DNA of 64,000 bases from Actinophytocola sp. (GCF_035942955.1 NZ_DASZCQ010000160.1:18878-82877), one strand, 5' to 3'; shown: positions 12,811 through 45,062, counted from the first letter of the stretch. A program made the numbers and translations. The notes: generated by a model not told the origin, from the sequence alone.

Positions 12811-12897
12811 ATCATCACTCTACCTTGACCAGGTGACAACGAGCGGCCATCGCGTGGACAAATGGCTGCGTCGTCGCACCTTGGAAGGACGCACGAT

Positions 12898-15064: not shown

Positions 15065-16492
15065 CTAGAGGGGGATGTTGCCGTGGGCGCCGCGGCCGGC
15101 GGGGGCGGCGGCGAGGGCCTCGGCGAGTTTGCGGCGGGTTTGGGCGGGGTCGATGACCTCGTCGACGACGCCGATGGCCATGGCGCGGTCGACGCCGCCG
15201 GCGATCATCTCGTGCTCCTCGGTGAGGCGGGCGTGGAGGGCTTCGCGCTCCTCCTCGGGGGCGGCGGCGAGCTTCTTGCGGTGCAGGATGCCGACCGCGG
15301 CCTTGGCGCCCATGACGGCGACCTCGGCCTCCGGCCAGGCGAACACCGTGGTGGCGCCGAGCGCGCGGGAGTTCATCGCGATGTACGCGCCGCCATAAGC
15401 CTTGCGGGTCACCAGCGTCACCCGGGGCACGACGGCCTCGGCGAAGGCGTGCAGGAGCTTGGCGCCGCGCCGGACCACACCTTCCCACTCCTGGCCGACG
15501 CCGGGAAGGTAGCCGGGCACGTCCACCACGACCAGCAGTGGCACGCCGAACGAGTCGCACATGCGCACGAACCGGGCGGCCTTCTCGGCCGACAGCGAGT
15601 CGAGGCAGCCGCCCTTGCGCAGCGGGTTGTTGGCGATCACGCCGACGGTGCGCCCGCCGAGCCGGCCGAGCCCGACCACGATGTTGGGCGCCCACTTGGC
15701 CTGCAGCTCCTCGAACATGGAGACGTCGCCGTCGTGGTCGAGGATGCCGCGCAGCAGCGGCTTGACGTCGTATGCGCGGTTGGCCTGCTCGGGCAGCAGC
15801 ACCCGCAGGTTCTCCTCCTTGCGCACGGTGTGCAGGTCGAACAGGCCGGGCCGGGCGAACAGCGAGGTGATCCGCCGGGCCCGCCGGTAGGCGTCAGCCT
15901 CGTCGGTGGCGAGCACGTGCACCACGCCGGAGCGCCGGCCGTGCGCCTCGGCGCCGCCGAGGCCCTCCTGGTCGATCTGCTCACCGGTGACGCTGCGTAC
16001 CACGTCCGGCCCGGTGACGAACACCCGCCCCTCCGGCGACATGATCACCACGTCGGTCAGCGCCGGCCCGTAGGCGGCGCCCCCGGCGGCCGGGCCGACC
16101 ACCACCGAGATCTGCGGGATCCGGCCGGACGCCCGGATCATCGCGGCGAACACCTGGCCGACCGCGTCCAGCGACTCCACGCCCTCGGCCAGCCGCGCCC
16201 CGCCGCAGTGCCAGACCCCGAGCACGGGGCAGCGCTCCCGCACCGCGGTGTCGATCGCCTCGACGATGTGCCGGCACCCCTCGGTGCCCATCGCGCCACC
16301 CATCTTGGTGGCGTCGGTGCAGTAGGCGATCACCTTGGTGCCGTCGATGCGCCCACGCACCGCGTACACCCCGGACGAGTCGGCCGGGTGCAGCGGTGCC
16401 ATCGAGCCGGGGTCGAGCAGTGCGGTGAGCCGGACCTCCGGTTCTCGGGGGTCGAGCTGGCGCGCACCGGGCCGCGTGGCCACTGCGGTCAT
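15065..16492 (-). CDS. acyl-CoA carboxylase carboxyltransferase beta subunit (AccD6-like, last gene of the fab operon)
   Basis: From ORF 15065..16522; an ATG at 16492 follows GAGGAG. Motifs: 'DATKMGGAMG', 'GGARLAEG', 'GPAAGGAAYGPALTD', 'RKAYGGAYIAM'. The gene order resembles fabD-acpM-kasA-kasB-accD6. Confidence 0.85.
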   Translation of the reverse strand: MTAVATRPGARQLDPREPEVRLTALLDPGSMAPLHPADSSGVYAVRGRIDGTKVIAYCTDATKMGGAMGTEGCRHIVEAIDTAVRERCPVLGVWHCGGARLAEGVESLDAVGQVFAAMIRASGRIPQISVVVGPAAGGAAYGPALTDVVIMSPEGRVFVTGPDVVRSVTGEQIDQEGLGGAEAHGRRSGVVHVLATDEADAYRRARRITSLFARPGLFDLHTVRKEENLRVLLPEQANRAYDVKPLLRGILDHDGDVSMFEELQAKWAPNIVVGLGRLGGRTVGVIANNPLRKGGCLDSLSAEKAARFVRMCDSFGVPLLVVVDVPGYLPGVGQEWEGVVRRGAKLLHAFAEAVVPRVTLVTRKAYGGAYIAMNSRALGATTVFAWPEAEVAVMGAKAAVGILHRKKLAAAPEEEREALHARLTEEHEMIAGGVDRAMAIGVVDEVIDPAQTRRKLAEALAAAPAGRGAHGNIPL

Positions 16493-30164: not shown

Positions 30165-32297
30165 TCAGGGAGTCGTTTGGTACTCGCGCATTGTCCGGGT
30201 TGGCAGCAGGGTTCGCGGGTCGAGGAGGCGGCTTAGGCGGCGGCCGAAACTCATGCCCTTGTGCAGTTCGGTGCGAATGGCGTCGTTGCATTGCCAGGCG
30301 AGTTCCGCGGCGTGGTCGAGGATTCCTTCCGGGGAGTAGGCAGCCCGGTCCACGATCTCGGCCAGTGGCCGCAGAAAGGGTTGCAGCGGACCGTGGACGA
30401 CCCCGATCACCTGGCCGGTGGTCGACCGGGGGCCGACGGGGATTCCGGCCCAACGCAGAGCGTCTATCGTGTCGCGCCAGGCCGCGATGGTGCGGCGGCG
30501 CGGGGTTCCGTTGTTACGGGCCCGTCGTCGCCGCACGATCCGGACGAGCGGAATCAGCCCGAGGCACAGGACCAGCGCGATGGCGACGATCGTGGCGAGG
30601 GTCGCCAAGCCGGACATGGAGTTGGCTGGCTGGGAAGAGAGATCGCCCTGGGCGTCGGCGGTGGCATCGGGTGGTTCCTCGGGAACCTGCTGGTCGGGCG
30701 ATGGTATGTCGTCGAGGGCGTCGGCCGGTGTGGGTTGCTGGACGGTCTTGCCTTGCCCATCAATGGATTGGGTCGGGCTCGGGTTGACCGGAATCCAGCC
30801 CAGCCGTTGGAACCGTACCTCGGCCCAGGCGAACACGTTCGCGCCACGGATGTGTAGGCGGTCTCCGTCCCAGGTCGGGCGGAATCCGAGGACGACGCGC
30901 GCGTCCCAGCCTAGATGGCGACTCAGCAGCGCGAACATCGAGGCGTACTGCTCGCTGGTGCCTCGTTTGGTGTTCACCAGGTCGGTGATCTGGCGTACCC
31001 CGTGGCCGCCGCGGGCCTGCGGGGAGTTGTCGTAGCTGAAGCCGCTGGTGCTCGTCATGGCCTGGTACAGGCCGAGCAACTGACCCAGACCGGCGGAACG
31101 TCCGGCTGTCGCGGTGTCGACGAACGCGAGCACCTCGGGCGGCAGCGGCAGGCGGCTTGCTTCGCTGGTGGCCGGGTCGTCGATGCCGACGTCGTTCGCC
31201 TCGAGGATGGGCTCGCGGCCGGTGATGCGGTAGGCGGCGGGAGTGTTCCGGTCGGCGGGCACCACGACATCACCGCTGGTGGCGTCGAATCCGAGGTCCG
31301 CCACGCTGATCTGGGTCGGCCGGCCAACGCGGGGTAGCCATCCGACGCTGTCGGGCGTCAGCACTTGCAGGTCGAGTGAGACGTCCCGGGTCGGGACCGC
31401 GGAGTCGGGAGTGGACAGCCGGGTACCGGCCCGCCGGTAGCTGGCTCCGATCGTCCAGGTCTGGCCGTCGAACCGGTCGAGCGTCACCATGCGGATGAGC
31501 TCGAGCCGCTCGCTCGCGGTGCCGGCGATCTCCAATGGCAGGAGGTTGTCCCGCAGCGCGAGGTAGCGCGCCATCGGATTCGTGTCCTCTTTGGGCAGCA
31601 CGGGCGCATCGACCAGAGCCTGCAGGCTGGTCGGGGGACGGTCGGCGGCGACGAGTGGCCCCAGCACGAGTCCGGACGCGGTCGCGATGAGCACGACCGC
31701 GGCGCCGGTCACCAGTCGCCCTTTCCCGAGTGCTCCCGCGAGCGCGGCTTCCCGGCCGGCCAGCACGACCGCCATGGCGACGACGGCGAAGACCGGCCCG
31801 TACCATGCGGCCGGTGCGCCGACGGTCGCGCTCAGCCCGAGACCGAGCAGCAGGCAGCACAGCGGGGGGAGCAGCGGCAGCCAGGCATTCCGCGGGCCCA
31901 GCGCCAGCCGGACGGCGATCAGCGCGGTGAAGCCGGCGATGGTCGAAATGGTTGCCAGTTCCGGACCGGATGGATCCACCGGGAGTGTCCCGGTCAGCAA
32001 CCGGGACGGTCCGAGCCGCACGTCCGCACCCGGCCTGGTCGCCAGCGCGACCGCGATGGCCACCGACAGCACGGCCAGCGCCACCGGGCCGTTGCCAAGG
32101 GCACGCCGGCCGAGCGGCACCGCAAGGCATCCCCAGCCGGCGGCCACCGCGACGGGCGCCAGGATCGCCAGGAGCAGCGGCGGTTCCGCGCCGTCGCCGA
32201 AGGTGGCCCGGAATGACCAGGCGGACAGTGCCGACAGCCCGGCCGCGAGGACGACTCGGACGAGGGCAATGCCCCGGCCGCCAAGCATCGCTGACAT
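30165..32297 (-). CDS. transglutaminase-like polytopic membrane protein (TgpA/DUF3488-like) with substituted catalytic triad
   Basis: From ORF 30165..32333. The ATG at 32297 overlaps the DUF58 stop (TGATG); the alternative start is 32333. It has N-terminal TM helices, a core 'KRGTSEQYASMFALLSRHLGWDARVVLGF...FAWAEV...WIPVNPSP', and a C-terminal TM. Confidence 0.8.
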   Translation of the reverse strand: MSAMLGGRGIALVRVVLAAGLSALSAWSFRATFGDGAEPPLLLAILAPVAVAAGWGCLAVPLGRRALGNGPVALAVLSVAIAVALATRPGADVRLGPSRLLTGTLPVDPSGPELATISTIAGFTALIAVRLALGPRNAWLPLLPPLCCLLLGLGLSATVGAPAAWYGPVFAVVAMAVVLAGREAALAGALGKGRLVTGAAVVLIATASGLVLGPLVAADRPPTSLQALVDAPVLPKEDTNPMARYLALRDNLLPLEIAGTASERLELIRMVTLDRFDGQTWTIGASYRRAGTRLSTPDSAVPTRDVSLDLQVLTPDSVGWLPRVGRPTQISVADLGFDATSGDVVVPADRNTPAAYRITGREPILEANDVGIDDPATSEASRLPLPPEVLAFVDTATAGRSAGLGQLLGLYQAMTSTSGFSYDNSPQARGGHGVRQITDLVNTKRGTSEQYASMFALLSRHLGWDARVVLGFRPTWDGDRLHIRGANVFAWAEVRFQRLGWIPVNPSPTQSIDGQGKTVQQPTPADALDDIPSPDQQVPEEPPDATADAQGDLSSQPANSMSGLATLATIVAIALVLCLGLIPLVRIVRRRRARNNGTPRRRTIAAWRDTIDALRWAGIPVGPRSTTGQVIGVVHGPLQPFLRPLAEIVDRAAYSPEGILDHAAELAWQCNDAIRTELHKGMSFGRRLSRLLDPRTLLPTRTMREYQTTP

Positions 32298-33466
32298 CAG
32301 CCCGCCACCCCACCGAGCACGAAATGGTTCCATGCCGCCATCGCCTCGGCGCCGGTTCGGCCGCTCAGCACGACCATCCCGGGCCGGCGGTACGGCGCCG
32401 GCAACGGCAGGCCCGCGGCCACGACCGTGATCACGACGACCGGCGCGAAGCGGCGGCGCTGTTCGGCCAGCCGGGCGACCACGGCCGGCTCGCCCGCTCC
32501 GGTGACGACGACCAGCGCACCGCCCGGTTCGGCTCGGTCCACCTCTTCCAGCAGGTGCACGGGTTCGGCATCCGGTTCGCGGACCGCTGCGGCCAGTCTG
32601 TCCAAGAGCGACACCGCGCCGGCGGCGATCACCGCGGGCACATCCTCGCCGAGGATCTGGATCCGGGCCGGCCGGCCACCGTCGACCGTGCCCTGCGCCA
32701 CCGATGCGGCCACCTCAACGGCGTGTTCGAACATCGCCGCGTCGAGCACCGACGACCGGGTGTCCAGGACGATGGTGACCGCCGGCTCCATGGTGTCCGT
32801 GGACTCCCGCACGATCAGTTGTCCGGTGTGGGCGGTGGAGCGCCAGTGGATCCGGCGTGGATCATCGCCGGGGACGTACTCCCGCAGCGAGGAGAACCAG
32901 GTCGTGCCGGCCTTCGACAGCTCGGCCCGGCCTTCGAAGTCGGGCACCGTCCCCACCGGTACGGGATACGACGGATGGACCCGGGGATGCACCCAGAGCA
33001 CGCCCGTGTCGCGATGCAGCTGCGCGCGGCGGAACAGGCCGAACGGATCCTGCCGTTCGACGCTCAACGGTCCCAGGGGCAACCGTCCCCGGCGATCGGT
33101 GGGGATGGGGTAGTGCACGGTGCGGGACCCGCCGGCTCGGAGGACGGGCACCTGTATCCCATGTGGACGGTCATCGACCCGGTCCACCACGACCATGGCG
33201 GGCAACGGCCACCGGGCCAGGTTGCGCACGACCAGCCGGCCCGCGGCGGGCTCGCCCACGCTGATCCGGTCCGGCGCCACGCTTCGGGTCAGCCGCAGGC
33301 TCGGCCGGACCACCACGGTGACCCCGGCCAGTGCGAGGACGGCAAGGCCGGTCAGGCCGAGCGTCACCAGCACCGGGTACCCCCAGGCCCGACCGACCAG
33401 CCCCAAGATCACGGCGGCGGCCACGACGCACCAGCCGCTGCCGGTCAGCGGAATCCGGCGGCTCAT
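32297..33466 (-). CDS. DUF58 domain-containing protein (vWA-like partner of MoxR)
   Basis: The start is the internal ATG of ORF 32297..33832, 2 nt after the moxR stop. It has two N-terminal TM helices and 'REYVPGDDPRRIHWRSTAHTGQLIVRE'. Confidence 0.85.
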   Translation of the reverse strand: MSRRIPLTGSGWCVVAAAVILGLVGRAWGYPVLVTLGLTGLAVLALAGVTVVVRPSLRLTRSVAPDRISVGEPAAGRLVVRNLARWPLPAMVVVDRVDDRPHGIQVPVLRAGGSRTVHYPIPTDRRGRLPLGPLSVERQDPFGLFRRAQLHRDTGVLWVHPRVHPSYPVPVGTVPDFEGRAELSKAGTTWFSSLREYVPGDDPRRIHWRSTAHTGQLIVRESTDTMEPAVTIVLDTRSSVLDAAMFEHAVEVAASVAQGTVDGGRPARIQILGEDVPAVIAAGAVSLLDRLAAAVREPDAEPVHLLEEVDRAEPGGALVVVTGAGEPAVVARLAEQRRRFAPVVVITVVAAGLPLPAPYRRPGMVVLSGRTGAEAMAAWNHFVLGGVAG

Positions 33467-33468
33467 GA

Positions 33469-34464
33469 TCAGCCGACCGCCGCCGGCGCCGGGGCCGGGA
33501 CCGAGGCCATGATCTCGGCGAGGATGTCGCCGGTCTTGATGCCGTGCACCTCCGCCTGTGCGGTGAGCACGAGCCGGTGGGCGAGCACGGGCGCGGCGAC
33601 CGCGCGCACGTCGTCCGGCACGACGAAGTGCCGACCGAGGCCGAGCGCGAACGCCTGGGCCGCGCGCAACAGGGCGAGGCTGCCACGGGTGCTCATGCCC
33701 AGCCGCAGGGCCTTGTGCTCCCGGGTGGCGTGCGCCAGCAACGCCACGTAGCGGACGACCTCCGGCGCCGCGTAGATCGACGAGGCCACCTGGTGCTGCA
33801 GCGCGGCGATCTGGTCGAGGCTGGCGACGCACCGCACGGCGGGCGCGGCGGCCTGCGCGCGGCCGGTCAGGATCTCGGTTTCGACGTCCAGATTCGGGTG
33901 GCCCAACGAGATCCGCATGAGGAACCGGTCCAGCTGCGCCTCGGGGAGCTGGTAGGTGCCTTCGAGATCGATCGGATTCTGCGTGGCGACGACGAGAAAT
34001 GGGGTGGGGACCGGACGGCCGCGCCCGTCCACCGTCACCTGGCCCTCCTCCATGACCTCGAGCAGGGCGGACTGCGTCTTCGGACTGGCCCGGTTGATCT
34101 CGTCGGCCAGCACGATGTTGGCGAACACCGGGCCGGGACGGAAGGTGAACTCCTGCTCGCCCTGATTCCAGACCGAGACGCCGGTGATGTCACCGGGCAG
34201 CAGGTCGGGCGTGAACTGGATCCGTTGCCAGCTGCCGGCGATGCTGGTGGCCAGCGCCTTGGCCAGCGACGTCTTGCCGGTGCCGGGCACGTCCTCGATC
34301 AGCAGGTGGCCGTTGGCGAACAGGCAGGCCAGGGCCAGCCGGACGGCCGCGGTCTTGCCGCGGATGGCACGTTCGACCTCCGCGAGCACGGCGTCGTGCA
34401 CGCTGCGGAACATCTGCTGCGGATCGCCCGGGATCACGGCGGGCGCGGTGTGCTGGTTGGTCAC
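33469..34464 (-). CDS. moxR: MoxR-family AAA+ ATPase
   Basis: From ORF 33469..35487; a GTG at 34464 follows AAGGAAA. Motifs: Walker A 'GTGKTS', Walker B 'LADEINRA', 'ATQNPIDLEGTYQLPEAQLDRF'. Confidence 0.9.
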   Translation of the reverse strand: MTNQHTAPAVIPGDPQQMFRSVHDAVLAEVERAIRGKTAAVRLALACLFANGHLLIEDVPGTGKTSLAKALATSIAGSWQRIQFTPDLLPGDITGVSVWNQGEQEFTFRPGPVFANIVLADEINRASPKTQSALLEVMEEGQVTVDGRGRPVPTPFLVVATQNPIDLEGTYQLPEAQLDRFLMRISLGHPNLDVETEILTGRAQAAAPAVRCVASLDQIAALQHQVASSIYAAPEVVRYVALLAHATREHKALRLGMSTRGSLALLRAAQAFALGLGRHFVVPDDVRAVAAPVLAHRLVLTAQAEVHGIKTGDILAEIMASVPAPAPAAVG

Positions 34465-34490
34465 GGATTTCCTTGGGATTGGTTGGGGTT

Positions 34491-36851
34491 TCAGCGCGGC
34501 AGGCAGGCCGGTCCGGCCGATGGTTCGGAGGGAGTGGTCACGCCGAGCGCGATCACGACGTAGCAGGCGGATGGCAGCGGATCGAGGTCCGGGAAGCTGA
34601 CGATGGCGCTGGGCACCGAATCGAGCAACTGTCCATTGCGGAGGATGACGAACGAGGTCAGTCCAGGCAGCTCGCGGGATTCGGGCGGCCAGGACAGCGT
34701 GACCCGCCCATCCGCGGTGTCGATCCGCACCGGCACCTTGTGGTCGGTACCGGGGAGCGTGGTCGTGGTGGGGGGCGGGGTGATCCGATCGGTGGAGTCG
34801 CGCTGGCCGACCCAGATTCCCACGCCGATGCCCAGAGCGGCGACCAGCCCGGCGATGGCGGTCAGCACCAGCCAGCGCCGCCGGGCCCGCCGGCGGTCCG
34901 GCGGCTCGGCGGGACGGGGATGCGGCGGATGGGCGCTGATCTCGGTCGGCGTCACTCCGGAGTGGACGGTGGCGTGCGGGTCGACCGGCTGCGGCGCCAC
35001 GTCGGGGGAGCTCAGCCAGGGCGGTTCCGCCGGCACGGCGATGCGCACGGTGCTCTCCGCGTCGATGACCGGGACCGGTTGAGCCGGTCCCGTCAGCAGG
35101 AGCTCCCTTGCCAGGTCGCTGAGCACCTCGGAGGCTTCGAGCGCGGTGGGGCGTCCGCGCGGATCCTTGGCCAGGCACGCCGCGAGAAACGACCACGCCG
35201 CCTCGGGCAGGTCCGGCGGGCGGGGCGGCGTGCGCAGCTGGTGCTGCCGGAGGATGTCCTCCGTGCTGCCGGCGAACGGGCGGTGTCCGGCCAGCACCTC
35301 GTACGTGGTGATGCCCAGCGCGTAGATGTCGCTGGCCGGGGTCGGCGACTCCCGGTTGACCAGCTCGGGTGCGATGTAGGGCGGTGAGCCGGGCAGATAG
35401 CCGAGTTGGGTGACCGGGGCTCCGTCGACCGCCTTCACCAGACCGAAATCGGTGAGCAGTGCCCGAGTCCGGCCATTCTGCTCGCACACCAGGATGTTCG
35501 CCGGCTTGAGGTCGCGATGGACGACGCCGCTCGCGTGCACGGCGGTCAGCCCGGAGGCGACCTCGGACAGCAGCCGCAGGCCCTCGGCCCGGTCGAGCTC
35601 CCCGGCCACCAGCAGCCGCCGCAGGTCGGTGCCCTCGACCAGGTCCATGATGACGGCCGCTTCGCCCTTGCCCTTGGCGATGTAGAGGTCACGCACCCGC
35701 ACCAGGTGCGGGTGGTCCAGGTCCTGCACCACCGATGCCTCGCGCACCAGCCGCATCAGGCTGTCGGGATCGGTGACCAGGTCCGGACGCAGCAGCTTGG
35801 CGGCCACGAGCATCCCGTCGGCTCGCCGCCGAGCCCGCCACACGGTGCCCATGCCGCCCTCGCCGATCCTCGCCAGCAGCTCGTACTCGCCGCCCAGCGA
35901 TCGCGGAAGTTCGGCGCCACGGTGCTCCGAGGGCACGGTGCTCCGGACGTCTATTGTGGACTGCGGATCCCGCAGGTGCTTGGCGAAAGCGGCCACCGAC
36001 GGTGGTCGGGAGCCCGGTTCGCTGGACAGCGCCCACCGCAACGCGGTGGTGAACTTCGCCGCGGCCTCGGGCAACTGGCCCACCGGGCTCTGCCCGGCGA
36101 ACAGCACCCGCTCGGCCCGGCTGCCGGAGAACGGTGGCCGGCCGCTGAGCAGGGTCCACAGCGTGGAGGCCAAGGCGTAGACCTCGCCGGCCGGCGTCCA
36201 GTCCTGCCCGGCGAGCTGCTCCGGTGGCTCGTGGCCGGTGCCCTCCGTGGTGGCCGCGGCAATCTCGGCGAGCGCCGGCAGCAGCGGGCAGTCCAGCACG
36301 ACGTGGCCGGTGGGCTGACGCAGCAGCGCGGCCGGGCTGATCGCCTGATGGACGGTGTCGTTGCGATGCAACAACTCCAGCCCGCTCGCGGCAGCCAGGA
36401 CGGCCTGCAGCGCCTCGGCGACGGGGAGCGGCCCGCGGGCGGCGAGCTCGTCGGCGAGCGACCGTCCTCGTCGAGCGGTGACCAGAACCGGGCGGCCGCC
36501 GGCATCCCGATCATGGTGCAGTAGCGGAAGAACGAAGGGGTTGCGGCTGACGGCGAGCACATTGTCCAGTGCCGCGGCCTCGTCCCGAACGCGCCGCAGC
36601 TGCGTCCGGTCCAGCTTGGCCACGACGACTCGCACGGTGACTTCGGTTCCGTCGTCCCGGATCGCCGGAGCGACCGCGAACAACCCGTCGTCGGTTGGTT
36701 CGCTCAACAGGCGGTAGCCGTCAAGCGGTCCGGCGGCCACTCCTGCGCCACCCCCACGAGAAAACGTCGATCTACCAACGCCGAACACATCACGCACGGC
36801 GTGCGGGCCGTTACACAGTACCCGCGGCCGGTGGTCGATCGTCGCGGTCAT
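34491..36851 (-). CDS. membrane Ser/Thr protein kinase with N-terminal pseudokinase domain, canonical kinase domain, one TM helix and an Fn3-like ectodomain
   Basis: ORF of 786 aa. The active domain has 'GEGGMGTVW', 'VAAKLL', 'HRDLKPANIL', 'DFGL', 'SPPYIAPE'. The N-domain has 'HQAISPAALL' and 'LDCPL' instead. The TM helix is 'WLVLTAIAGLVAALGIGVGIWVG'. Confidence 0.85.
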   Translation of the reverse strand: MTATIDHRPRVLCNGPHAVRDVFGVGRSTFSRGGGAGVAAGPLDGYRLLSEPTDDGLFAVAPAIRDDGTEVTVRVVVAKLDRTQLRRVRDEAAALDNVLAVSRNPFVLPLLHHDRDAGGRPVLVTARRGRSLADELAARGPLPVAEALQAVLAAASGLELLHRNDTVHQAISPAALLRQPTGHVVLDCPLLPALAEIAAATTEGTGHEPPEQLAGQDWTPAGEVYALASTLWTLLSGRPPFSGSRAERVLFAGQSPVGQLPEAAAKFTTALRWALSSEPGSRPPSVAAFAKHLRDPQSTIDVRSTVPSEHRGAELPRSLGGEYELLARIGEGGMGTVWRARRRADGMLVAAKLLRPDLVTDPDSLMRLVREASVVQDLDHPHLVRVRDLYIAKGKGEAAVIMDLVEGTDLRRLLVAGELDRAEGLRLLSEVASGLTAVHASGVVHRDLKPANILVCEQNGRTRALLTDFGLVKAVDGAPVTQLGYLPGSPPYIAPELVNRESPTPASDIYALGITTYEVLAGHRPFAGSTEDILRQHQLRTPPRPPDLPEAAWSFLAACLAKDPRGRPTALEASEVLSDLARELLLTGPAQPVPVIDAESTVRIAVPAEPPWLSSPDVAPQPVDPHATVHSGVTPTEISAHPPHPRPAEPPDRRRARRRWLVLTAIAGLVAALGIGVGIWVGQRDSTDRITPPPTTTTLPGTDHKVPVRIDTADGRVTLSWPPESRELPGLTSFVILRNGQLLDSVPSAIVSFPDLDPLPSACYVVIALGVTTPSEPSAGPACLPR

Positions 36852-39800
36852 CGGGCATCACCCGGCCCACCAACCAGGTCCTCGGTCAGGTGCAGCGGCA
36901 CCTGCGCCAACGTAGCCTGTCCACGAAGCACCAGTAGACCGCGCCCGGGTGGCCAGCCGCCCGCCATGGACCGGGACAGCCGCACGTCGAAGACCTCGCC
37001 GGCGAGATGGCTCGCCGGGTTGAGCAGCAGCCCGCTGCGCGCCCGGCGGGCCTGGGCCAGCCACCCGCGATACCGGTTGATCAACAGGTCGTCGGTCGTG
37101 GCCGCCGCCACGAGCACCGACCCGGTCTCCCGTGCCTCGAGGAGGAAACGTTCCAACGCCTCGCCCAGCGCAAGCTCGTCGACCAGCTCGCCGTCGTCAA
37201 CGACCACGGCGACCGGACCGCCGGCGGACAGGACCAGATCGTCGAACTCCGCCGGGGCCGCGCCGGTGGTCACGCCGAGCACACCGGCCAGGTCGGCCAC
37301 CTGCCGCAGCGGCGACGGCCGCGGTGTCACCAGCACGACCGGAAGCCGGCCGTCGGGACGGCCGGCAAGGCCGTGCACGATGGTGGCCAGCGTGCTGGAC
37401 CGTCCCGATCGGCCAGGACCGGCGACGACGAACGTTCCACCGACCTCGGCGAGATCGACGTCGACCGGGCCCGCGTGGTCTCCGCCGACGGCCGGAGTGC
37501 AGACGGTGGCGGCCGGCGACCGGGTGGCTCCCCTGAGCGCCTCGGCCTCGGCGATGGAGATCCGGTCCGGCAGCGGATCTATGCGGTGCGGCAACAACGC
37601 CGGGTCCAGGTCGTCCGCAGCGGCGCGCAGGCGTGCGGCGAGCCCGGCCAGCGCCCGGATCTGTGCGGCCCCGGACGGGTCTGCGTCGAGGAGCGGGAGC
37701 TGGACCTCCTCTCCGGCGGCCGTCCAGATCGCCCGGCCCGCCGGCATCCGGGCCGGCACGGCCCGCGGCGAAAGCCCGAAGACCGCGACGTCGTCCCGAT
37801 CCGCCTGGCGCAGCACCAACCGGTGCTCGATGGCGGTGGCGATCCGTGGTCCGAACGCGGTGCGGTCCGTGCTCAGCACCGTCACCAGCCCGACGGCCGG
37901 TCCCCGGCGCAGCAGTCCCTCCAGCAGCTCCACCAGGCGGCCGCCGTCGTGCTCGTCGAAGGCGGATCGGAATCCCTCCAACCGATCCAGCAGCAGGATC
38001 AGGTAGGGCAACCGGTCCGCCGGCGCGGCGGCCCGGCGTTGCTCGGCAAGACCGCTGTACCCGCCGGCCAGCACGCGTTGCCGGCGGCGCACCTCACCGT
38101 CCAGCCAGTCCAGCAGGCGCGCCACCCGCATCGAGTCCTCGGCATCCACAATGGCGCCGCTGTGCGGCAGCTCGGCGAGCGGCGCCAGGGCCCGATTGCC
38201 GCAGTCCAGGCCGTAGATGTGCACGGTGTCCGGTCCGGTGGCCGCGCACAGGCCGGCGGCGATGGCGCGCAACGCGGTGGAGCGACCGGTCCGCACCGTG
38301 CCACCCACTGCGATCGGCCCGGTCCGCTCGAGATCGAGCTCGAAGGCGTCCTGTGCCTGCGCGGTGGGCCGATCGACGAGTCCTAATAGGACACAGAGCG
38401 GCGGCCGTTGGGAACCCGGCGAGAGTTCCGCGGTGACGACGTCGGGCAGCGGCGGCAGCCACGGGCGCCGCGGACTGCTCAGGCCCAGCTGCCGCGCGGC
38501 CACTCGGCTCGCGGCCACGAGGGCGGTCAGATCGGTGTGCCCATCGGCGTCCACGTCGGCGGCCGCGCTCGCGCCCGCCCTGGGCGAGCGGCCGAGCTCC
38601 GTCGTCCGCCGGGGGCGCACGGACACCGGCTCCGGGCCCGGCGACTCGGCATCGGCGGCCCTGGGCCAGCCGACCCGGGCGGCCTGGAAGGCAGTCAGGT
38701 CGCCGTGGCCGGTGCGCAGGTATGCCCGGCCCGGTTGACGCGAGGTGATGCGGGCGGCATCCGGTGCGTCGATCACGTCCACCGACTCGCTCTCCGCGGT
38801 GACCCGCAAGCAGATCCTCAGGTTGAGGTTGGCCCGCAGGTCGGCGGTCACCACGCCGCCCGGACGCTGGGTGGCGAGCACCACGTGCACGCCGAGGCTT
38901 CGGCCGCGCATGCCGATGCCCACCACGCCCGGAACGAACTCCGGGACCTCCTCGATCAGCGAGGCGAACTCGTCCACCACGATCACCAGCCGGGGCAACC
39001 GGTCTCCGGTGCGGGCCCAGTAGTCGTCGATGTCCTTCGCCTCGGCGTCGGCGAGCAGCTTCTCCCGGCGGCGGAGCTCGGCCGACAGCGAGTCCAGCGC
39101 GCGGCCGACCAGGTGCCCGTCGAGGTCGGTGATCAACCCGACGCAGTGTGGAAGCTCCGCGCAGGCGGCGAATGCGCTCCCGCCCTTGTAGTCGACCAGG
39201 ACGAAGGTCAGCGCGTCGGGCATGTTGCGCACGGCCAGCGACGCGATCAGGGTCTGCAGCAGCTCGGATTTCCCGGCGCCCGACGTGCCGGCGATCAGCG
39301 CGTGCGGGCCGTCCCGGCGAAGGTCGACGGTGAGCGGCCCGGACGGGCCGACGCCAAGCACGGCCGTGGTGGACCGGCCCTCGGGTGAGCCCGCCCACGC
39401 CGCGCGGACCAGCTCGCCGTCGGTCTCCCGGCCCGAGATCGCCAGCCCGGCCAGCTCGGTGAACCGGACCCGCTCCGGCAGCGCCTCCGCACCCGCGGGC
39501 ACGCCGAGCGTGTCGAGCGGCGCCAGCGCCAGCGCCATCCGCATGGCGTGGCCCGGCTCGAGGCCGTCCACCAGGAGGTCCTCGATGACCGGCAGGTCGG
39601 CGCGACGCAGCCGGGCCCGGCTTCCGGACGGGCTGGTCAGCACGGCGGTCGCGCCGCATTCCGCCGGCAGCGCCGTCTCGTCGTCATCCAGGCAGAGGGC
39701 GTACACACCGGCGGTGGGCCCGTCGGCCAGCAGCTCGGCCAGCCCGGGCAGTCCGCGCATCCGCCGGGCGCCGTCCACGACGACGAGGAACTCCCGGCCG

Positions 39801-41290
39801 GCCGAGCGTCCCGTGCGCAGCGAGGAGCGTTGCCGCACAAGGCGTTCCGCGACCAGTGCGCGCAGTTCGGACAGCCTCGACTCGGCCTGGGCGCCGTCCG
39901 TGGCGACCAGGCGAGAGCTGCCGAACGTCGGGCCGGACGGCCGGGTGTGCGGCAGCCAGGTCGCCCATTCCCAGTCAGCGGATTCGTCCTGCCCGGTGAT
40001 GACGACGACGCCCAGGTCCCGCGGCGCGTGCAGCCCGCCCGCCTGGGTCACGACTGCCCGCGCGGCGGCGAGCAGGCCACGGCGTTCCCCGGCCATGCCG
40101 AGGACTCCGACCCGGCGCAGCTCGACCGTCGCGGGAACGTCGCGCACGGTGGGCACCGCGGGCAACTCGGCCGAGCCACCGCGGGGTTGCGGATAGCGGG
40201 GATCGAACCGCAGCCGCAGCTCGGCCTGCCGGTCGTGCAAGCCCAGCCGCAGCCGAAGGAAGTCGGGATCGCTCGGGCGCCTTTCCCATAGCCGTGCGGA
40301 TGGTGCGCACGCGGCAGCGGCGACCCAGGACGGATCGGGGTGGACGGCACGCGCCCGGCGCTCGTCCGCGGCGCACGCGGCGGCGAGTGCGCCGCGGAAC
40401 GTCTCGAGCGCCAGGTCGTACTCCTTCTTCCGCGCCGCGTACTCCCGGCGCCCCGAACGCCGGTCCCCGATCAGGTTGGCCAGCACCATGACCGGGCTGA
40501 GCAGCATGATCAGCAGGAAGTAGCCGGCGTTGGGCAGCAGGACGTACAGCCCCCCGCCGAACAGCAGCGGCAGCAGCACGGCGATCCACGGGAACCGGAA
40601 ACCGCTGGGCTTGTCCGGTTCCACCGGCACCAGCAGCGCGTGGGGCGGCTCCGGCATGGAGATCCGCGGCGGCCGGTTGAACCAGCGCGTACCGTTTCCC
40701 GGTTCGGCCGTGACGTCCGCGTCCGCAAGCACCGTCGGGCGCAGGCCGAGCACCGTCTCGCCCAGGCCGGCCACGTCGCCGACGGCGAGCCGGGCCGGTT
40801 CGGTCAGCCGCCATCCCTGCCAGCGGATTCCGTTGTGGGAGTTGGCATCCGCCAGCCATACGACACCGTCCGCGCCGACCGAGATCGTGGCGTGGACACG
40901 GCTGACCTCCGGATCGGCAATCGCCAGGTCGGCCTCCGGTCCGCGGCCCAACCGCAGTTCGGTGCCGGGATACAGCAGGCGGCTCGGTCCGCCATGCAGG
41001 CCGCCGACGACCGAGATCTCCGGAATCTCCCCACTGGTCACGCCGTGGCCGGAGGTCAGCAGCGGTTGGCCGACCCCGACCACGGCGCCGTTGGCGAGTC
41101 CCGAATCCGCCACCGACACGTCACCCGGTACCGGCATGGTCCCCAGATACAGGGGACCGGCGGCCCGGTCGCCGAGGTGCTCGGCCAGAGCCGCGGTCAG
41201 GTCCGCGATGCGGTGGGACGGTGCGGCCGTGACGACCACCGGACGCGACACGCCGTCCGGGCCGACACAGACCAGCTCGATCTCGGTCAT
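36848..41290 (-). CDS. EssC/EccC-like type VII secretion FtsK/SpoIIIE ATPase: ubiquitin-like N-domain, FHA domain, 2 TM helices, three P-loop domains
   Basis: ORF of 1480 aa. FHA: 'LRLGRGPEADLAIADPEVSRVHATI...ADANSHNGI'. D1: 'GTSGAGKS', 'VIVVDEFA', 'LATQRP'. D2: 'GGTVRTGRST'. D3: 'GPGRSGRSS', 'VVVVDDGE'. Confidence 0.85.
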   Translation of the reverse strand: MTEIELVCVGPDGVSRPVVVTAAPSHRIADLTAALAEHLGDRAAGPLYLGTMPVPGDVSVADSGLANGAVVGVGQPLLTSGHGVTSGEIPEISVVGGLHGGPSRLLYPGTELRLGRGPEADLAIADPEVSRVHATISVGADGVVWLADANSHNGIRWQGWRLTEPARLAVGDVAGLGETVLGLRPTVLADADVTAEPGNGTRWFNRPPRISMPEPPHALLVPVEPDKPSGFRFPWIAVLLPLLFGGGLYVLLPNAGYFLLIMLLSPVMVLANLIGDRRSGRREYAARKKEYDLALETFRGALAAACAADERRARAVHPDPSWVAAAACAPSARLWERRPSDPDFLRLRLGLHDRQAELRLRFDPRYPQPRGGSAELPAVPTVRDVPATVELRRVGVLGMAGERRGLLAAARAVVTQAGGLHAPRDLGVVVITGQDESADWEWATWLPHTRPSGPTFGSSRLVATDGAQAESRLSELRALVAERLVRQRSSLRTGRSAGREFLVVVDGARRMRGLPGLAELLADGPTAGVYALCLDDDETALPAECGATAVLTSPSGSRARLRRADLPVIEDLLVDGLEPGHAMRMALALAPLDTLGVPAGAEALPERVRFTELAGLAISGRETDGELVRAAWAGSPEGRSTTAVLGVGPSGPLTVDLRRDGPHALIAGTSGAGKSELLQTLIASLAVRNMPDALTFVLVDYKGGSAFAACAELPHCVGLITDLDGHLVGRALDSLSAELRRREKLLADAEAKDIDDYWARTGDRLPRLVIVVDEFASLIEEVPEFVPGVVGIGMRGRSLGVHVVLATQRPGGVVTADLRANLNLRICLRVTAESESVDVIDAPDAARITSRQPGRAYLRTGHGDLTAFQAARVGWPRAADAESPGPEPVSVRPRRTTELGRSPRAGASAAADVDADGHTDLTALVAASRVAARQLGLSSPRRPWLPPLPDVVTAELSPGSQRPPLCVLLGLVDRPTAQAQDAFELDLERTGPIAVGGTVRTGRSTALRAIAAGLCAATGPDTVHIYGLDCGNRALAPLAELPHSGAIVDAEDSMRVARLLDWLDGEVRRRQRVLAGGYSGLAEQRRAAAPADRLPYLILLLDRLEGFRSAFDEHDGGRLVELLEGLLRRGPAVGLVTVLSTDRTAFGPRIATAIEHRLVLRQADRDDVAVFGLSPRAVPARMPAGRAIWTAAGEEVQLPLLDADPSGAAQIRALAGLAARLRAAADDLDPALLPHRIDPLPDRISIAEAEALRGATRSPAATVCTPAVGGDHAGPVDVDLAEVGGTFVVAGPGRSGRSSTLATIVHGLAGRPDGRLPVVLVTPRPSPLRQVADLAGVLGVTTGAAPAEFDDLVLSAGGPVAVVVDDGELVDELALGEALERFLLEARETGSVLVAAATTDDLLINRYRGWLAQARRARSGLLLNPASHLAGEVFDVRLSRSMAGGWPPGRGLLVLRGQATLAQVPLHLTEDLVGGPGDAR

Positions 41291-41295
41291 GGCCG

Positions 41296-41556
41296 TCAGT
41301 GGTTGGCGGCCTGGTCGATCAGGTGCTTGCGCCGGTCGACCTCCTGCGCCGCGCGGCTGAGCTCATCGGCCAGGTTGCGCAGCGCCGGGTTGAACTCGCT
41401 CTCCCACGCCTGCCGGAACCGGTCCGCGGCCGCGCCGGTCCAGGTGGTGGTGTTGATCAGCGTGGTGAGGGCGCGCTGCAGGTCGGTGACCTCCCCACCG
41501 CACACGCCCAAGCGGCGGGACAGCGTCTCCAGCTCGGCCAGCTCCGCCTTGATCAT
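41296..41556 (-). CDS. WXG100-family protein (86 aa)
   Basis: Its size, helical character and central 'TTWTGAAADRFRQAW' (W-x-G) fit the family. Its stop lies 5 nt upstream of the EssC-like start. Confidence 0.65.
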   Translation of the reverse strand: MIKAELAELETLSRRLGVCGGEVTDLQRALTTLINTTTWTGAAADRFRQAWESEFNPALRNLADELSRAAQEVDRRKHLIDQAANH

Positions 41557-41637
41557 GGCAGCTCCTCGGGTCGATTCGTTCCGGTCGGCTCGACGCTAAG
41601 AGGCTTGCGCCGCAATGGAAATGGGAAGCCCTGCCCA

Positions 41638-42309
41638 CTACCTGCCCGGCAGCAGCCGGAGATCGCCGGAGTTGATCAGCCGGCTAGTCAGTGCGTATTC
41701 GGCCAGGTTGCTCAGCGCGTTCGGGCCCGTCATGGCGGGCACACCGGCCTTGTCGAGCCGGCTGCGCAGGTACTCGATCCGCTTCACGAGCGTGGTTCTA
41801 GCCCACCCCAACCGTTTGGCGGCCGCCTCGTACGAGCGCGGGTGCGGGTCGTACCGGTCGCCTTCCTCCAGGTAGCCGGCGAACAGGGCGATCAGCGCCA
41901 GCCGGTCCTGCTGTGTGATCGTCACGTCCTGGCCGATCGTGGTGGGCACGCCGTCGACCGGTAGCTCGACCTGCGGTGTCCGGCGCTCCGGCGCGTCCAC
42001 GCGGAGCAGGTACGGCTTGGGCCGGCTGCCCTGCACCAGAACACGCATGCGGCCTTCCAGGGCGAATTTTCGGCCCGGCGCGAGCACGCTGCGGATCCCG
42101 TGCGTGTCGACCACTTCCAACATGCGAGTAGAGCTCACGTTCACCAGAAACCACGTTCCGTTGTCGGACCGGATGATGCCGGCCGTGCGGGAAATCGCGG
42201 CGTCGTCCGGGGCCAGGCAGTGCGTGCACTGCGTGGACCTGCCGAAACTGAACTCGTGTCCAATCTGGAGGACATATTTGTCCATTTCCGCGTGGACCGT
42301 CACGCTCAT
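41638..42309 (-). CDS. FHA domain / C-terminal HTH regulator
   Basis: ORF of 223 aa with the FHA-like 'FSFGRS....ISRTAGIIRSDNGTWFLVNVSS' and C-terminal 'AAAKRLGWARTTLVKRIEYLRSRL'. Confidence 0.65.
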   Translation of the reverse strand: MSVTVHAEMDKYVLQIGHEFSFGRSTQCTHCLAPDDAAISRTAGIIRSDNGTWFLVNVSSTRMLEVVDTHGIRSVLAPGRKFALEGRMRVLVQGSRPKPYLLRVDAPERRTPQVELPVDGVPTTIGQDVTITQQDRLALIALFAGYLEEGDRYDPHPRSYEAAAKRLGWARTTLVKRIEYLRSRLDKAGVPAMTGPNALSNLAEYALTSRLINSGDLRLLPGR

Positions 42310-42416
42310 GCTCCGGTTACTCCTCGTCCAGTTGGGAAGCGCTCCCTAGTTACACCCCCGCAACGGCTTTTGTATTCTGCCGGACGTCTTCCGCCGCCGA
42401 GGCACAGGAGTAAGAC

Positions 42417-44939
42417 GTGACCATCCTGCGCAGAATGATCGGACGAGGCAGGACCGGGTCGACCGTCCTGGTCGGAACGCTTCTCGCCGGCGTTCTCGCC
42501 GCGTCATTCGGGGTGGGCTACAGCGCGACGACGCCGGAACTGAACGACGGCACCAACCACGTTCCGCACGGCCACGGCATCTCGCAGGTGAACAGCGAGA
42601 CGCAGCGCGTTGAGAACGAGGCCAGGGCGTTGGCGACCGGCAAGGAGGAGATCGAGGTCGTCGAGCTGCAGGACGGCCGGGCCGCCGCGGTGAACAACCG
42701 GACGGGCGAGGTGCGCGTGTACCCGCGCGACCTCGGAACCGACTCCACCGTGACGCCACCCCAGGCCGGCAAGGACAAGCCGGTACCGCCGGGGGAGCAG
42801 CCCGCGGTGGTCGCCGGGAAGGACTCGGGCTACGTCGTCGATCCGACCGGGAACACCGTCCGGCAGCTCGGCGTCGACGGGCCGGCGCCGCCGCCGGTAC
42901 AGATCGACGGCGGCGCCAGCCGGACCGCCGTTCCCGACGGGGCCGGCGGCATCTGGGTGCTGACCGACGACGAGAAGGCCGTGCACGTCGTGCGTGACCG
43001 CATCGTCCACCGGGTCACCGCCCCCGACCCGATCAGGCAGCTCAGCGTGGCCGACGGGCGCCCGGTGGGAATCACCTCGAAGGGGGAGGCGCTCGACATC
43101 GCCGCCCGGCCGCTGCGCGCGATCGCCAGCCGTCCGGTACCGTCCGGGCCGAGCGTCGTGGTCGGGTCCCCGCGTGGGGCGGGCCGCTATCTCCTCGTGC
43201 TGGATCGCAAGGACGGCCGGCTGTTCGCCGTCGACCCGCGAACCCGTGCCGTTCATGACATCGGCACGCTGCCGACCGACTCGCCCAACAGCCTCGGCGC
43301 GCCGGTGATCCTCGACGACCGCGCCTACATCCCGCAGTACGCCCCGCGCAAGCACCGGCTCTTCGTCCGTGAGCTGCCGAGCGGCACCCCGCACGACGAT
43401 GTCCCGGTCCCCGGCGAGCACGAGCGGTTCACCCTCGAGGTGCGCGACCACCGCGTGTGGGCCAACGACCAGTTCGACCGCCGTGTCGTGGTGGTCGGCC
43501 GCGATGGCCGGCCCGCGGTGATCGACAAGGGCGACCGGCCGGGCGTGCAGAGCGACACCACCCAGGGCGAGCACAAGGACCAGGCGCCGCCCAAGGACAC
43601 TCCGCCGAGCACGGTCCCGCCGCCCCCCACGACGGCTCCGCCACCCAGCACCGAGGCAACCGATCCACCACCGTCGCGGGTCACCGTGCCCGAGATCGCG
43701 CGTGGGACTCAACAGGATGTCGCCTGCGACCGCGTCAGGGCCGTCGGCTTGCGTTGCGACATCGTCGAGGTGGGCCCGGGCGGCCCCACCGGAACGGTCC
43801 GCGACACCAAACCGCTCGGCGGAAGCCGGGTCCCCGAGGGCTCGGTCGTGCGGGTCTTCGTGTACGGGCCGGTCTCGGTGCCCAGCGTCGTCAACCTGCT
43901 GTCCGACGCGGCCTGCGCGAAGATTCTGAGCGGCGCGGGGGAACCCGGCGCCGGTGGCCAACTGAAGTGCGTCAAGGAACCCATGCCCGGCACCGGACGT
44001 ACGTGGTCCGATTTGGACGTCGTCGCCGAGCAGAACCCCGCGGCGGGCACGCGTGTCGAGCTCGACACCACGGTCACCATTCGGTTCTGGAACACGGTTC
44101 TCATGGAGAACCTGGCCGGCCGCAACGGCGAGAGCGAGTGCCAGAGAGTCATTGCCTCCTCCCGCAACCGGGTCACTTGCACCATGCAGTTGTCTAGTGG
44201 GCGACACACACCCGACCAGGCCGGCCAAGTCGCGTCGCAGTCACCACCGCCAGGCAGCCCGGTGGGGATCGGGGGTTCGATCGTGCTGGACGTCTACGGC
44301 GCGTCGCCGCCGCCCAGCGTCCCACCTATGGTCGGAACCGAGATCAACGCGGCGTGCCAGGCCGCGAGCAACGCCGGCTACACCTGCGACGCGCGCGCGG
44401 ATGTGCCGCTGTCCAACACCCCCAACGTCGTTCTGTCCCAGGAGCCGCCACCGGGCACGCCACAGCAGGGCGGCAACGTGATCCTGCACTATTCGAACAA
44501 CCAGGGCGCGGGACTCCAACCGCTGTACCGCTTCCGCGCCGCCAACAACGACCCGGTGTGGATCGTCCGGCTGGGCAACGCCCCGGTGGAAGGCTATGCG
44601 AACCCCGTCCATATCGGGTGGGCCTACAACGCGGCGGTCGGTGGAACGTGGACGATCAATGACTTCTACTGTACGGGCAAACCCAGCAACTGCGGTGGCT
44701 TCGAGCGCAATCACTACTACACCAAGAATGATCAACCAGTCATTCCGAACTTCGACAAGCACTACGCCGTGGGCGCCTTTATTCAGGCTCCCGACGGTCA
44801 ATGCGCCCCCGGCCAGCGGCGCATGTACCGCTTCAAGTATCACGCCAATGATGGACGAAGGTACTTTATCGGCGAAGGTCGACCAGACGGCTGGCCGGAT
44901 GACTATGAAGAATGGCTAGGGTGTATCTGGGCGCCGTAG
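42417..44939 (+). CDS. membrane-anchored surface protein: N-terminal TM, ~330-aa beta-rich domain, Pro-rich linker, four PASTA-like repeats, C-terminal Cys/aromatic domain with two 'YRF' repeats
   Basis: ORF of 840 aa with a GTG start after AGGAG. The PASTA-like units begin at 'VTVPEIARGTQQDVAC', 'VSVPSVVNLLSDAAC', 'VLMENLAGRNGESEC' and 'SVPPMVGTEINAAC'. It has no kinase or PBP domain. Confidence 0.7.
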   Translation: MTILRRMIGRGRTGSTVLVGTLLAGVLAASFGVGYSATTPELNDGTNHVPHGHGISQVNSETQRVENEARALATGKEEIEVVELQDGRAAAVNNRTGEVRVYPRDLGTDSTVTPPQAGKDKPVPPGEQPAVVAGKDSGYVVDPTGNTVRQLGVDGPAPPPVQIDGGASRTAVPDGAGGIWVLTDDEKAVHVVRDRIVHRVTAPDPIRQLSVADGRPVGITSKGEALDIAARPLRAIASRPVPSGPSVVVGSPRGAGRYLLVLDRKDGRLFAVDPRTRAVHDIGTLPTDSPNSLGAPVILDDRAYIPQYAPRKHRLFVRELPSGTPHDDVPVPGEHERFTLEVRDHRVWANDQFDRRVVVVGRDGRPAVIDKGDRPGVQSDTTQGEHKDQAPPKDTPPSTVPPPPTTAPPPSTEATDPPPSRVTVPEIARGTQQDVACDRVRAVGLRCDIVEVGPGGPTGTVRDTKPLGGSRVPEGSVVRVFVYGPVSVPSVVNLLSDAACAKILSGAGEPGAGGQLKCVKEPMPGTGRTWSDLDVVAEQNPAAGTRVELDTTVTIRFWNTVLMENLAGRNGESECQRVIASSRNRVTCTMQLSSGRHTPDQAGQVASQSPPPGSPVGIGGSIVLDVYGASPPPSVPPMVGTEINAACQAASNAGYTCDARADVPLSNTPNVVLSQEPPPGTPQQGGNVILHYSNNQGAGLQPLYRFRAANNDPVWIVRLGNAPVEGYANPVHIGWAYNAAVGGTWTINDFYCTGKPSNCGGFERNHYYTKNDQPVIPNFDKHYAVGAFIQAPDGQCAPGQRRMYRFKYHANDGRRYFIGEGRPDGWPDDYEEWLGCIWAP

Positions 44940-44951
44940 CCGCTCGGTGAG

Positions 44952-44988
44952 ACCGCCTCGGACGTGTGGTCCGAGGCGGTTTCTTCTT
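44952..44988 (+). terminator. intrinsic terminator after the PASTA-protein gene
   Basis: An 11-bp perfect stem ACCGCCTCGGA/TCCGAGGCGGT with a 7-nt loop, followed by TTCTTCTT. Confidence 0.8.
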
Positions 44989-45062
44989 GGGGAGCCTTTC
45001 CCGTTTCATCGTACTGACGAGCCGGCCAGACTTCGGGTGAACGAGGCTCGAGGAGGCTGGTG

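Follow-up and report, generated by a model that had tools for sequence, protein, structure and literature searches.

A PASTA-stalked beta-propeller protein as the probable sensor subunit of an Esr/PFNA-type envelope-sensing locus in Actinophytocola and related actinomycetes

The described systems closest to the locus studied here are the Esr (epibiont sensing and response) pathway of Schaalia odontolytica and the PFNA operon of Bifidobacterium. In Esr, described by Wang et al., the surface protein EsrA is encoded with a MoxR protein, a von Willebrand factor A (vWA) protein, the transglutaminase EsrD, the kinase EsrE and the forkhead-associated (FHA) output protein EsrG (bioRxiv 10.64898/2026.09.08.750141). 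EsrA carries a Sec signal; its N-terminal beta-propeller, which is the sensing part, is followed by a stalk 'of different classes of repeats' that are exchangeable. Its retention at the surface depends on EsrD, and it is required for the kinase-dependent Thr phosphorylation of EsrG, which is often fused to EccC. According to the same preprint, esx genes adjoin 40% of Esr pathways and the Esr1 regulon includes surface proteins; the word PASTA is absent from its main text. The PFNA operon reads pkb2-fn3-aaa-atp-duf58-tgm, with prpC and fha present in some species (PMC8430577). Here, we describe a gene for a PASTA protein of 840 amino acids (aa) within 64,000 nucleotides of Actinophytocola sp. 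DNA (GCF_035942955.1, NZ_DASZCQ010000160.1:18878-82877), a stretch that we call the window. Its domain architecture and its neighbours suggest that the protein probably occupies the place of EsrA in a pathway of this type.

A first-pass annotation of the window had proposed that the protein consists of a single N-terminal membrane segment, a beta-rich domain and four PASTA-like repeats, each with a conserved Cys pair, and that it contains neither a kinase nor a penicillin-binding domain. This description held up in each respect. The Pfam PASTA profile (PF03793), which the annotation had named as a check, scores 65.4 bits over four stretches, above its gathering score of 23.2, and is the sole Pfam match on the protein; scanned singly, the units score 27.3, 20.3, 21.5 and 20.6 bits, with E ≤ 5e-4 for units 2-4. 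Structure prediction, which it had also named, gave the same answer. In an AlphaFold2 (AF2) model of the full protein, built on 21 homologues and with a mean predicted local distance difference test (pLDDT) score of 82, each unit shows the PASTA fold of one helix plus strands, and the top Foldseek match in the Protein Data Bank (PDB) is 5e12_A, which comprises PASTA units 2-4 of PknB (E 3.9e-10); 2kui and 3m9g match too. Pfam and NCBIfam scans found no kinase domain and no penicillin-binding or transpeptidase domain on the 840-aa polypeptide. As the NCBIfam model PknB_PASTA_kin is matched at its PASTA end only (40.3 bits; cut-off 450) and Pfam finds PASTA alone, we conclude that neither domain is present.

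The beta-rich N-terminal domain (residues 45-375) is modelled with 28 strands, which fits seven four-stranded blades of a beta-propeller, and its Foldseek matches are the propellers AztD, YVTN, NirF and Kelch (E about 1e-9). Residues 1-42 are disordered in the AF2 model; the membrane segment is the hydrophobic stretch at residues 13-36. Of exactly 12 Cys in the protein, the pairs C437/C447, C500/C518, C575/C588 and C647/C657 are invariant in the 21 sequences aligned. In the AF2 model, one Cys of each pair lies in the PASTA helix and its partner in the following strand, in all four units; as the pair spans helix and next strand, one disulfide per PASTA unit is plausible. Mean pairwise identity across the family falls from 0.57 in the transmembrane (TM) helix, its most conserved segment, through 0.51 in PASTA1, 0.46 in the propeller, 0.43 in PASTA4, 0.41 in PASTA2 and 0.37 in PASTA3, to 0.34 in the C-terminal domain, the least conserved folded part, and 0.25 in the linker between propeller and stalk.

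The C-terminal domain (C-domain) has no named family. Pfam gives no match to residues 693-840 even at E ≤ 10, DUF5648 (PF18885) included, and the PDB structure matches contain neither a relative nor a DUF5648 structure. Folded alone on 10 homologues, the domain reaches a pLDDT of 86 and a predicted TM-score (pTM) of 0.80, with nine strands. A profile search recovered 73 representatives among 1.84 billion proteins, the domain being C-terminal in every case. It also ends a Ser/Thr kinase (P0074) and an HTH_31 protein (P0080), in both after a TM segment, and small TM-Pro-rich proteins (P0057, P0058 and P0060). Since it ends these TM proteins, the C-domain behaves as an ectodomain module and represents a small, unnamed family of sensor-type ectodomains. 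The first-pass annotation had compared this domain to DUF5648, which is described as having three blades and a presumed role in binding glycans (bioRxiv 10.1101/2025.01.06.631476) and is carried by BSAP toxins, GH70 enzymes and some endolysins. The C-domain profile matches P0073, a protein with nine DUF5648 repeats, over 7 stretches (E 1.5e-8), and hhalign against a DUF5648 protein gives a weak match (probability 27.6%, E 6.5e-4) in which the LYRF/LYRW and NHYYT/DHFYT motifs pair across three successive repeats. The two domains resemble each other in length (about 140 aa), in an apparent three-repeat build in which LYR(F/W)...(D/N)H(F/Y)YT-like motifs recur and in a C-terminal position on exported proteins, whereas DUF5648 is described as beta-alpha and the C-domain model is almost all-beta, with four conserved Cys that DUF5648 does not share. 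The likeness is therefore reasonable but weak, and suggests a remote relationship to DUF5648 and not membership of that family.

The full-length family is rare, with 21 clusters among 5.8 billion proteins and named members in Actinosynnema, Saccharothrix, Umezawaea, Lentzea, Actinophytocola, Sphaerisporangium, Streptosporangium, Dactylosporangium and Protofrankia. Using tblastn, we compared the proteins of the window with fetched loci, which gave 13 distinct loci, the window counted, spanning four actinobacterial families; the sources are Pseudonocardiaceae, Streptosporangiaceae, Dactylosporangium and metagenomes. The host of the window falls in the same GTDB family as the Umezawaea contig and thus in the Pseudonocardiaceae. 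A gene for a 223-aa FHA and helix-turn-helix (HTH) protein is adjacent and divergent to the PASTA gene in all 13 loci, and an operon for a Ser/Thr kinase, a MoxR protein, a DUF58 protein and a transglutaminase-like protein adjoins in 12. The association was also seen at the level of genomes. In a 201-genome sample of the host's family, full-length homologues of the PASTA protein occur in 5 genomes and the 223-aa FHA-HTH gene in the same 5, while the orthologous transglutaminase-like gene (E < 1e-90) occurs in those 5 and in G062, a fragmentary assembly with a C-domain match only for the PASTA protein. Adjacency and co-occurrence together bear out the linkage to the kinase operon that the first-pass annotation had claimed.

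Two assemblies differ from this pattern. In G123, the FHA-HTH/PASTA pair (L013, G123:C126, 12453-13724) lies beside a flavin adenine dinucleotide (FAD) monooxygenase gene and the transglutaminase-like orthologue is on contig C149; the assembly is 8% contaminated, and a mis-binned contig may explain the split locus. G134, of the same genus as the window, has a decayed remnant (L016, 8986-9906, minus strand) with PASTA4 and a frameshifted C-domain. We found no FHA-HTH gene and no orthologous transglutaminase-like gene in the G134 genome, and the remnant looks like a recent loss of the system.

Like EsrA, the PASTA protein is an exported protein in which an N-terminal propeller is followed by tandem repeats. 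As in Esr, it is encoded with MoxR, vWA-type, transglutaminase-fold, Ser/Thr kinase and FHA proteins (12 of the 13 loci), and it is linked to esx genes and an FHA-EccC fusion. With PFNA, the locus has in common the order kinase, MoxR-type AAA ATPase, DUF58 and transglutaminase-like protein; it also shares a surface protein made of repeats and, with the operon of some species, an FHA protein. Because gene content and order match the Esr pathway and the PFNA operon, we think it fairly likely that the PASTA gene encodes the extracytoplasmic sensor or adaptor subunit, in the position of EsrA, of an Esr/PFNA-type envelope threat-sensing pathway. The parts are nevertheless built differently. EsrA is a giant protein with 14 immunoglobulin (Ig)-like domains, whereas the stalk here has 4 PASTA units within 840 aa; unlike EsrA, the PASTA protein also has an extra three-repeat C-terminal domain and a conserved N-terminal helix that is probably retained. 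In contrast to Esr, the transglutaminase-like protein here is without the Cys nucleophile, and an FHA-HTH protein, for which there is a conserved candidate operator, is among the outputs. The PFNA surface protein consists of FN3 repeats and is encoded between kinase and ATPase, whereas the surface protein here consists of PASTA units and is encoded divergently; PFNA is without PASTA, an EccC fusion or a divergent FHA-HTH gene. A search with the propeller only (aa 40-380) returned PASTA-bearing relatives only and gave no link to other EsrA-type stalks.

The PASTA and FHA-HTH genes diverge from a 107-bp intergenic region (42310-42416), as had been annotated. This spacer contains a 16-bp palindrome, with the consensus TGGGAAG-NN-CTTCCCA common to the divergent spacers. 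The position is filled in 11 of the 13 FHA-HTH/PASTA spacers, in 11 of 13 on the WXG100 side of the FHA-HTH gene and in 6 of 13 behind the PASTA terminator. Over 242 kb (12 loci), we counted 22 sites with at most two mismatches, compared to 0.6 ± 0.8 in shuffles (maximum 4 in 500), although the loci are related by descent and the sites are hence not independent events. The whole genome has 5 sites with at most one mismatch, 2 of them in this locus. A TAnnnT hexamer follows about 25 bp after the end of the palindrome, whose centre is 33 bp upstream of the hexamer. The palindrome is found at the promoters of three units, namely the PASTA/FHA-HTH pair, the kinase operon and the downstream operon. 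Only the FHA-HTH protein is both a candidate for DNA binding and encoded in every locus, and we therefore infer that the palindrome is its operator. This protein has an FHA signature with invariant GR, SR and N-x-S, and Pfam gives sub-threshold FHA matches in 8 of 12 members of its family (best E 1.3e-4) and HTH_8 in 8 of 12; a PDB sequence search with the family profile returned nothing, so the FHA/HTH assignment rests on the sub-threshold Pfam matches. In three loci, a gene for a ~182-aa membrane protein with a lipobox-like N-terminus lies 3' of the PASTA gene (L001, 12537-13085; L003, 12490-13047; L024, ~12526-13068) and is preceded by the third palindrome copy; in Lentzea, it comes after the cargo operon instead (L029, ~14644-15138), and no homologue was found in the window.

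Several points weigh against placing the PASTA protein in the EsrA position. The assignment rests on gene content and architecture, and the Esr pathway is itself supported by one preprint (bioRxiv 10.64898/2026.09.08.750141). The PASTA gene points away from the operon, whereas fn3 and esrA lie within theirs. Whereas Esr includes the PP2C phosphatase EsrF, a search limited to the PP2C_2 family (PF13672) gave no match on this contig, the genome's two matches being on other contigs. The propeller of EsrA is reported to be among the most diverse elements, whereas the propeller here is among the better conserved. Finally, the tightest genetic link of the PASTA gene is to the FHA-HTH gene and the candidate operator, which would also fit a gene that the pathway regulates. 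The FHA-HTH protein would then turn on the gene, whose product would be a lectin or shield protein bound to the wall, and the ectodomain of the kinase or of the transglutaminase-like protein would do the sensing. The FHA-HTH gene is indeed the closest and only invariable partner, the two genes have the palindrome-bearing control region in common, the pair stands apart from the kinase operon in G123, and the PASTA gene has its own promoter-like hexamer and terminator; surface proteins in the Esr1 regulon set a precedent. We nonetheless consider a regulated output unlikely: it would leave the cluster without the propeller sensor that is characteristic of Esr, the strong conservation of the membrane helix suggests that the protein has partners in a membrane complex, and the C-domain is elsewhere a sensor ectodomain on a kinase and an HTH-TM protein.

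The first-pass annotation had itself suggested that a muropeptide-sensing module and its kinase are encoded here as separate polypeptides. Worked out as a split PknB, this reading would have the four PASTA units recognise muropeptides or lipid II and thereby switch on, in trans, a kinase that has no PASTA of its own, with the propeller and C-domain as accessories. The separation stands: a receptor-like protein and a kinase are distinct polypeptides that are genetically tied in 12 of 13 loci, and the strict co-occurrence of the PASTA protein with its partner genes fits such a division of labor. Like PknB, PrkC and StkP, this system combines four tandem extracellular PASTA units with wall-associated signaling via a Hanks-type kinase and FHA proteins. 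Unlike in those kinases, no kinase is on the same polypeptide and the partner kinase is separate, the orientation is N-in/C-out, a propeller and linker stand between membrane helix and PASTA, and each unit has a Cys pair. Extracytoplasmic PASTA is likewise the common feature with PBP2x-type penicillin-binding proteins (PBPs), which differ in their transpeptidase domain. PASTA identity is solid (by Pfam, Foldseek and single-unit scans), PASTA1 is well conserved (51%), the ectodomain of the operon kinase is only ~100 aa and non-PASTA, and PASTA domains of PknB and PrkC bind muropeptides (PMC3145798, PMC5786024). Yet PASTA2 and PASTA3 are poorly conserved (41% and 37% identity), the stalk repeats of Esr are interchangeable and its sensor is the propeller, some PASTA domains, such as those of PonA2, do not bind peptidoglycan (PMC6273383), and the genome retains a canonical PknB-type PASTA kinase (contig C132). 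On balance, muropeptide sensing in trans seems to us improbable.

The annotation's other proposal, that the protein is a wall-docking structural component of a type VII-like secretion apparatus, is very hard to reconcile with the distribution of the FHA-FtsK (EssC/EccC-like) ATPase. In the window, the PASTA gene adjoins genes for a WXG100 protein, this ATPase and a candidate hydrolase cargo operon, and the same palindrome precedes all these units. However, the constant co-occurrence with an EssC-like ATPase that docking would lead one to expect was not found. The ATPase gene is full length in the window, G099, G181, Lentzea and Dactylosporangium; it ends after the first ATPase domain in Actinophytocola (L025), has shrunk to FHA plus TM (~540 aa) in Actinosynnema, Umezawaea and Saccharothrix (L001, L003 and L024) and is absent from two Sphaerisporangium loci and one Streptosporangium locus (L027, L028 and L032). 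A WXG100 gene is present only where the ATPase is full length, and is thus missing from the three loci without the ATPase. As the PASTA protein is intact in all loci in which the ATPase is absent (3 loci) or cut down (4 loci), we regard a docking role as highly improbable.

How the protein would work as an Esr/PFNA-type sensor depends on whether its N-terminal helix is retained. Signal peptides are not expected to be the best conserved segment of a protein. Here, the helix is the best conserved segment and has near-invariant residues (V26, A29, G32, G34 and Y35) spaced every 3-4 positions, for which reason we favour a retained membrane anchor. With the helix retained, the propeller would therefore rest on the membrane, with the kinase and transglutaminase-like ectodomains as its neighbours. 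From there, linker and PASTA units would thread the peptidoglycan as a stalk and hold the variable C-domain at the outer wall, where it could bind the cell's own or foreign glycan. Ligand binding or wall damage would be relayed to the kinase, with the MoxR and DUF58 proteins remodelling the complex, and the kinase would phosphorylate targets that are read by FHA outputs: the FHA-HTH protein, acting at the palindromes, and, in this genome, the FHA-EccC ATPase, which would export WXG100 and neighbouring SLT-VanY hydrolase cargo. A consideration on the other side is that the helix may be cleaved, which would invert this geometry. In that case, the protein would be fastened in the wall by its PASTA units and C-domain, and sensing would fall to the propeller at the free end, as EsrA is drawn.

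Taken to its most specific form, the retained-anchor geometry describes a distinct branch of Esr-type systems. In it, a membrane-anchored 'dipstick' would combine a propeller at the kinase and a dead transglutaminase with a disulfide-stapled PASTA stalk and a new three-repeat glycan-binding head that serves as the variable ligand reader at the wall surface, and would signal to the FHA-HTH protein at its 16-bp operator and to an FHA-EccC ATPase that fires a peptidoglycan hydrolase. We offer this picture tentatively, as possible but doubtful in its entirety.

The features of the locus are collected in Table 1. Most of the remaining observations concern the neighbouring proteins. The transglutaminase-like protein aligns with the periplasmic domain of Pseudomonas aeruginosa TgpA (6g49), and the replaced catalytic residues lie within ~455-515. 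None of the 8 linked orthologues examined has the nucleophile Cys, whose place is taken by Ser, Ala or Pro; a Ser-His-Asp set is retained in three. When the degenerate N-terminal fold of the kinase was used as a class-wide query, ordinary kinases were matched in 397 of 401 genomes, and the search was uninformative. For the MoxR protein, homologue matches start near residue 340-360 of the long open reading frame (ORF). We also considered the MoxR-vWA-beta-propeller ternary systems, which have the propeller fused to vWA and occur mostly in Bacteroidetes, Planctomycetes and Proteobacteria (Kaur et al. 2020). We rejected this assignment: the propeller here is on a separate exported protein, and the bpMoxR match behind the idea (29.3 bits) lies under a 207-bit AAA_3 match.

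The PASTA reading frame itself proved to be open over its annotated length. The record protein, P0002, has 834 aa and begins 6 codons later, at ATG 42435, which is without a good ribosome-binding motif; the GTG at 42417, the start chosen in the first-pass annotation, has AGGAG at a 6-nt spacing and for this reason looks the better start. The strong terminator annotated behind the gene is likely: the hairpin there is very stable (Table 1), but a simple terminator scan made no call at 44949-44983 because the U-tract is short.

Table 1. Coordinates of the PASTA gene, its domains, its neighbours and its control signals (positions in the window)
Feature	Position	Strand	Remarks
840-aa PASTA protein gene	42417..44939	+	open ORF; GTG start, AGGAG at 42406-42410; alternative ATG 42435
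N-terminal hydrophobic helix, aa 13-36	42453..42524	+	signal-anchor or signal peptide; sole hydrophobic segment of the protein
Predicted 7-bladed beta-propeller, aa 45-375	42549..43541	+	28 strands; AF2 pLDDT about 90; Foldseek propeller matches
Pro/Thr-rich disordered linker, aa 381-416	43557..43664	+	pLDDT below 50; 25% identity across family
Four PASTA units	43677..44495	+	aa 421-484, 485-559, 560-630, 631-693; each with invariant helix-to-strand Cys pair
All-beta C-domain, three ~48-aa repeats, 4 Cys, aa 697-840	44505..44936	+	no Pfam/PDB match; weakly DUF5648-like
15-bp stem-loop, likely intrinsic terminator	44949..44983	+	directly after stop codon; dG -33.3 kcal/mol, z -5.5
-10-like hexamer TATTCT	42373..42378	+	TAnnnT, same relative place in 12/12 intergenic regions compared; read by eye
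Palindrome TGGGAAGCGCTCCCTA, candidate operator	42333..42348		between FHA-HTH and PASTA genes
Second palindrome copy TGGGAAGCCCTGCCCA	41622..41637		between FHA-HTH and WXG100 genes
Third, weaker palindrome copy TGGGGAGCCTTTCCCG	44988..45003		between PASTA terminator and next + strand operon
223-aa FHA-like + HTH-like protein	41638..42309	-	invariable divergent partner of PASTA gene
WXG100 protein, optional member	41296..41556	-	Pfam 35.2 bits vs cut-off 27.3
FHA-TM-FtsK/SpoIIIE (EssC/EccC-like) ATPase, 1480 aa, optional member	36848..41290	-	Pfam, locus comparison
Ser/Thr kinase	34491..36851	-	degenerate kinase fold + active kinase + one TM (aa 659-683) + ~100-aa ectodomain without PASTA
MoxR-type AAA+ ATPase	33469..34470	-	start approximate; longest ORF runs to 35487
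DUF58 (vWA-like) protein	32297..33466	-	start approximate
TgpA-like transglutaminase-fold membrane protein	30165..32333	-	catalytic Cys/His/Asp replaced by Ser/Phe/Asn

The type of pathway is already known, from the 2026 Esr preprint and the PFNA papers. What is new here is a family of PASTA-stalked, three-domain probable sensors together with the family of its C-terminal domain, the candidate operator, and an EccC part that has been lost by degrees in different lineages.

To our knowledge, PASTA repeats have been studied almost only within PknB-type kinases and PBPs. Here, the PASTA stalk belongs to a receptor-like protein of its own, whose gene is firmly linked to that of a kinase without PASTA. 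This makes a natural 'split' system, in which the possible roles of PASTA in ligand sensing, wall anchoring and spacing can be asked about. The locus would extend the reach of Esr/PFNA pathways to soil actinomycetes, in the Pseudonocardiaceae, Streptosporangiaceae and Dactylosporangium, with a sensor that is small and tractable compared to the giant Ig/FN3 proteins. It also offers a compact, testable circuit, in which an FHA-HTH regulator is paired with a 16-bp candidate operator and an FHA-EccC ATPase with candidate wall-hydrolase cargo, and its C-domain defines an uncharacterised, confidently folded ectodomain family of 73 representatives that is also found on a kinase and an HTH regulator. 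If the dipstick picture were true, PASTA would have a role beyond kinases and PBPs, as a ruler that spans the wall or a sensor of its integrity, and the C-domain would found a new family of sensor ectodomains, used also by kinases and membrane-bound HTH regulators.

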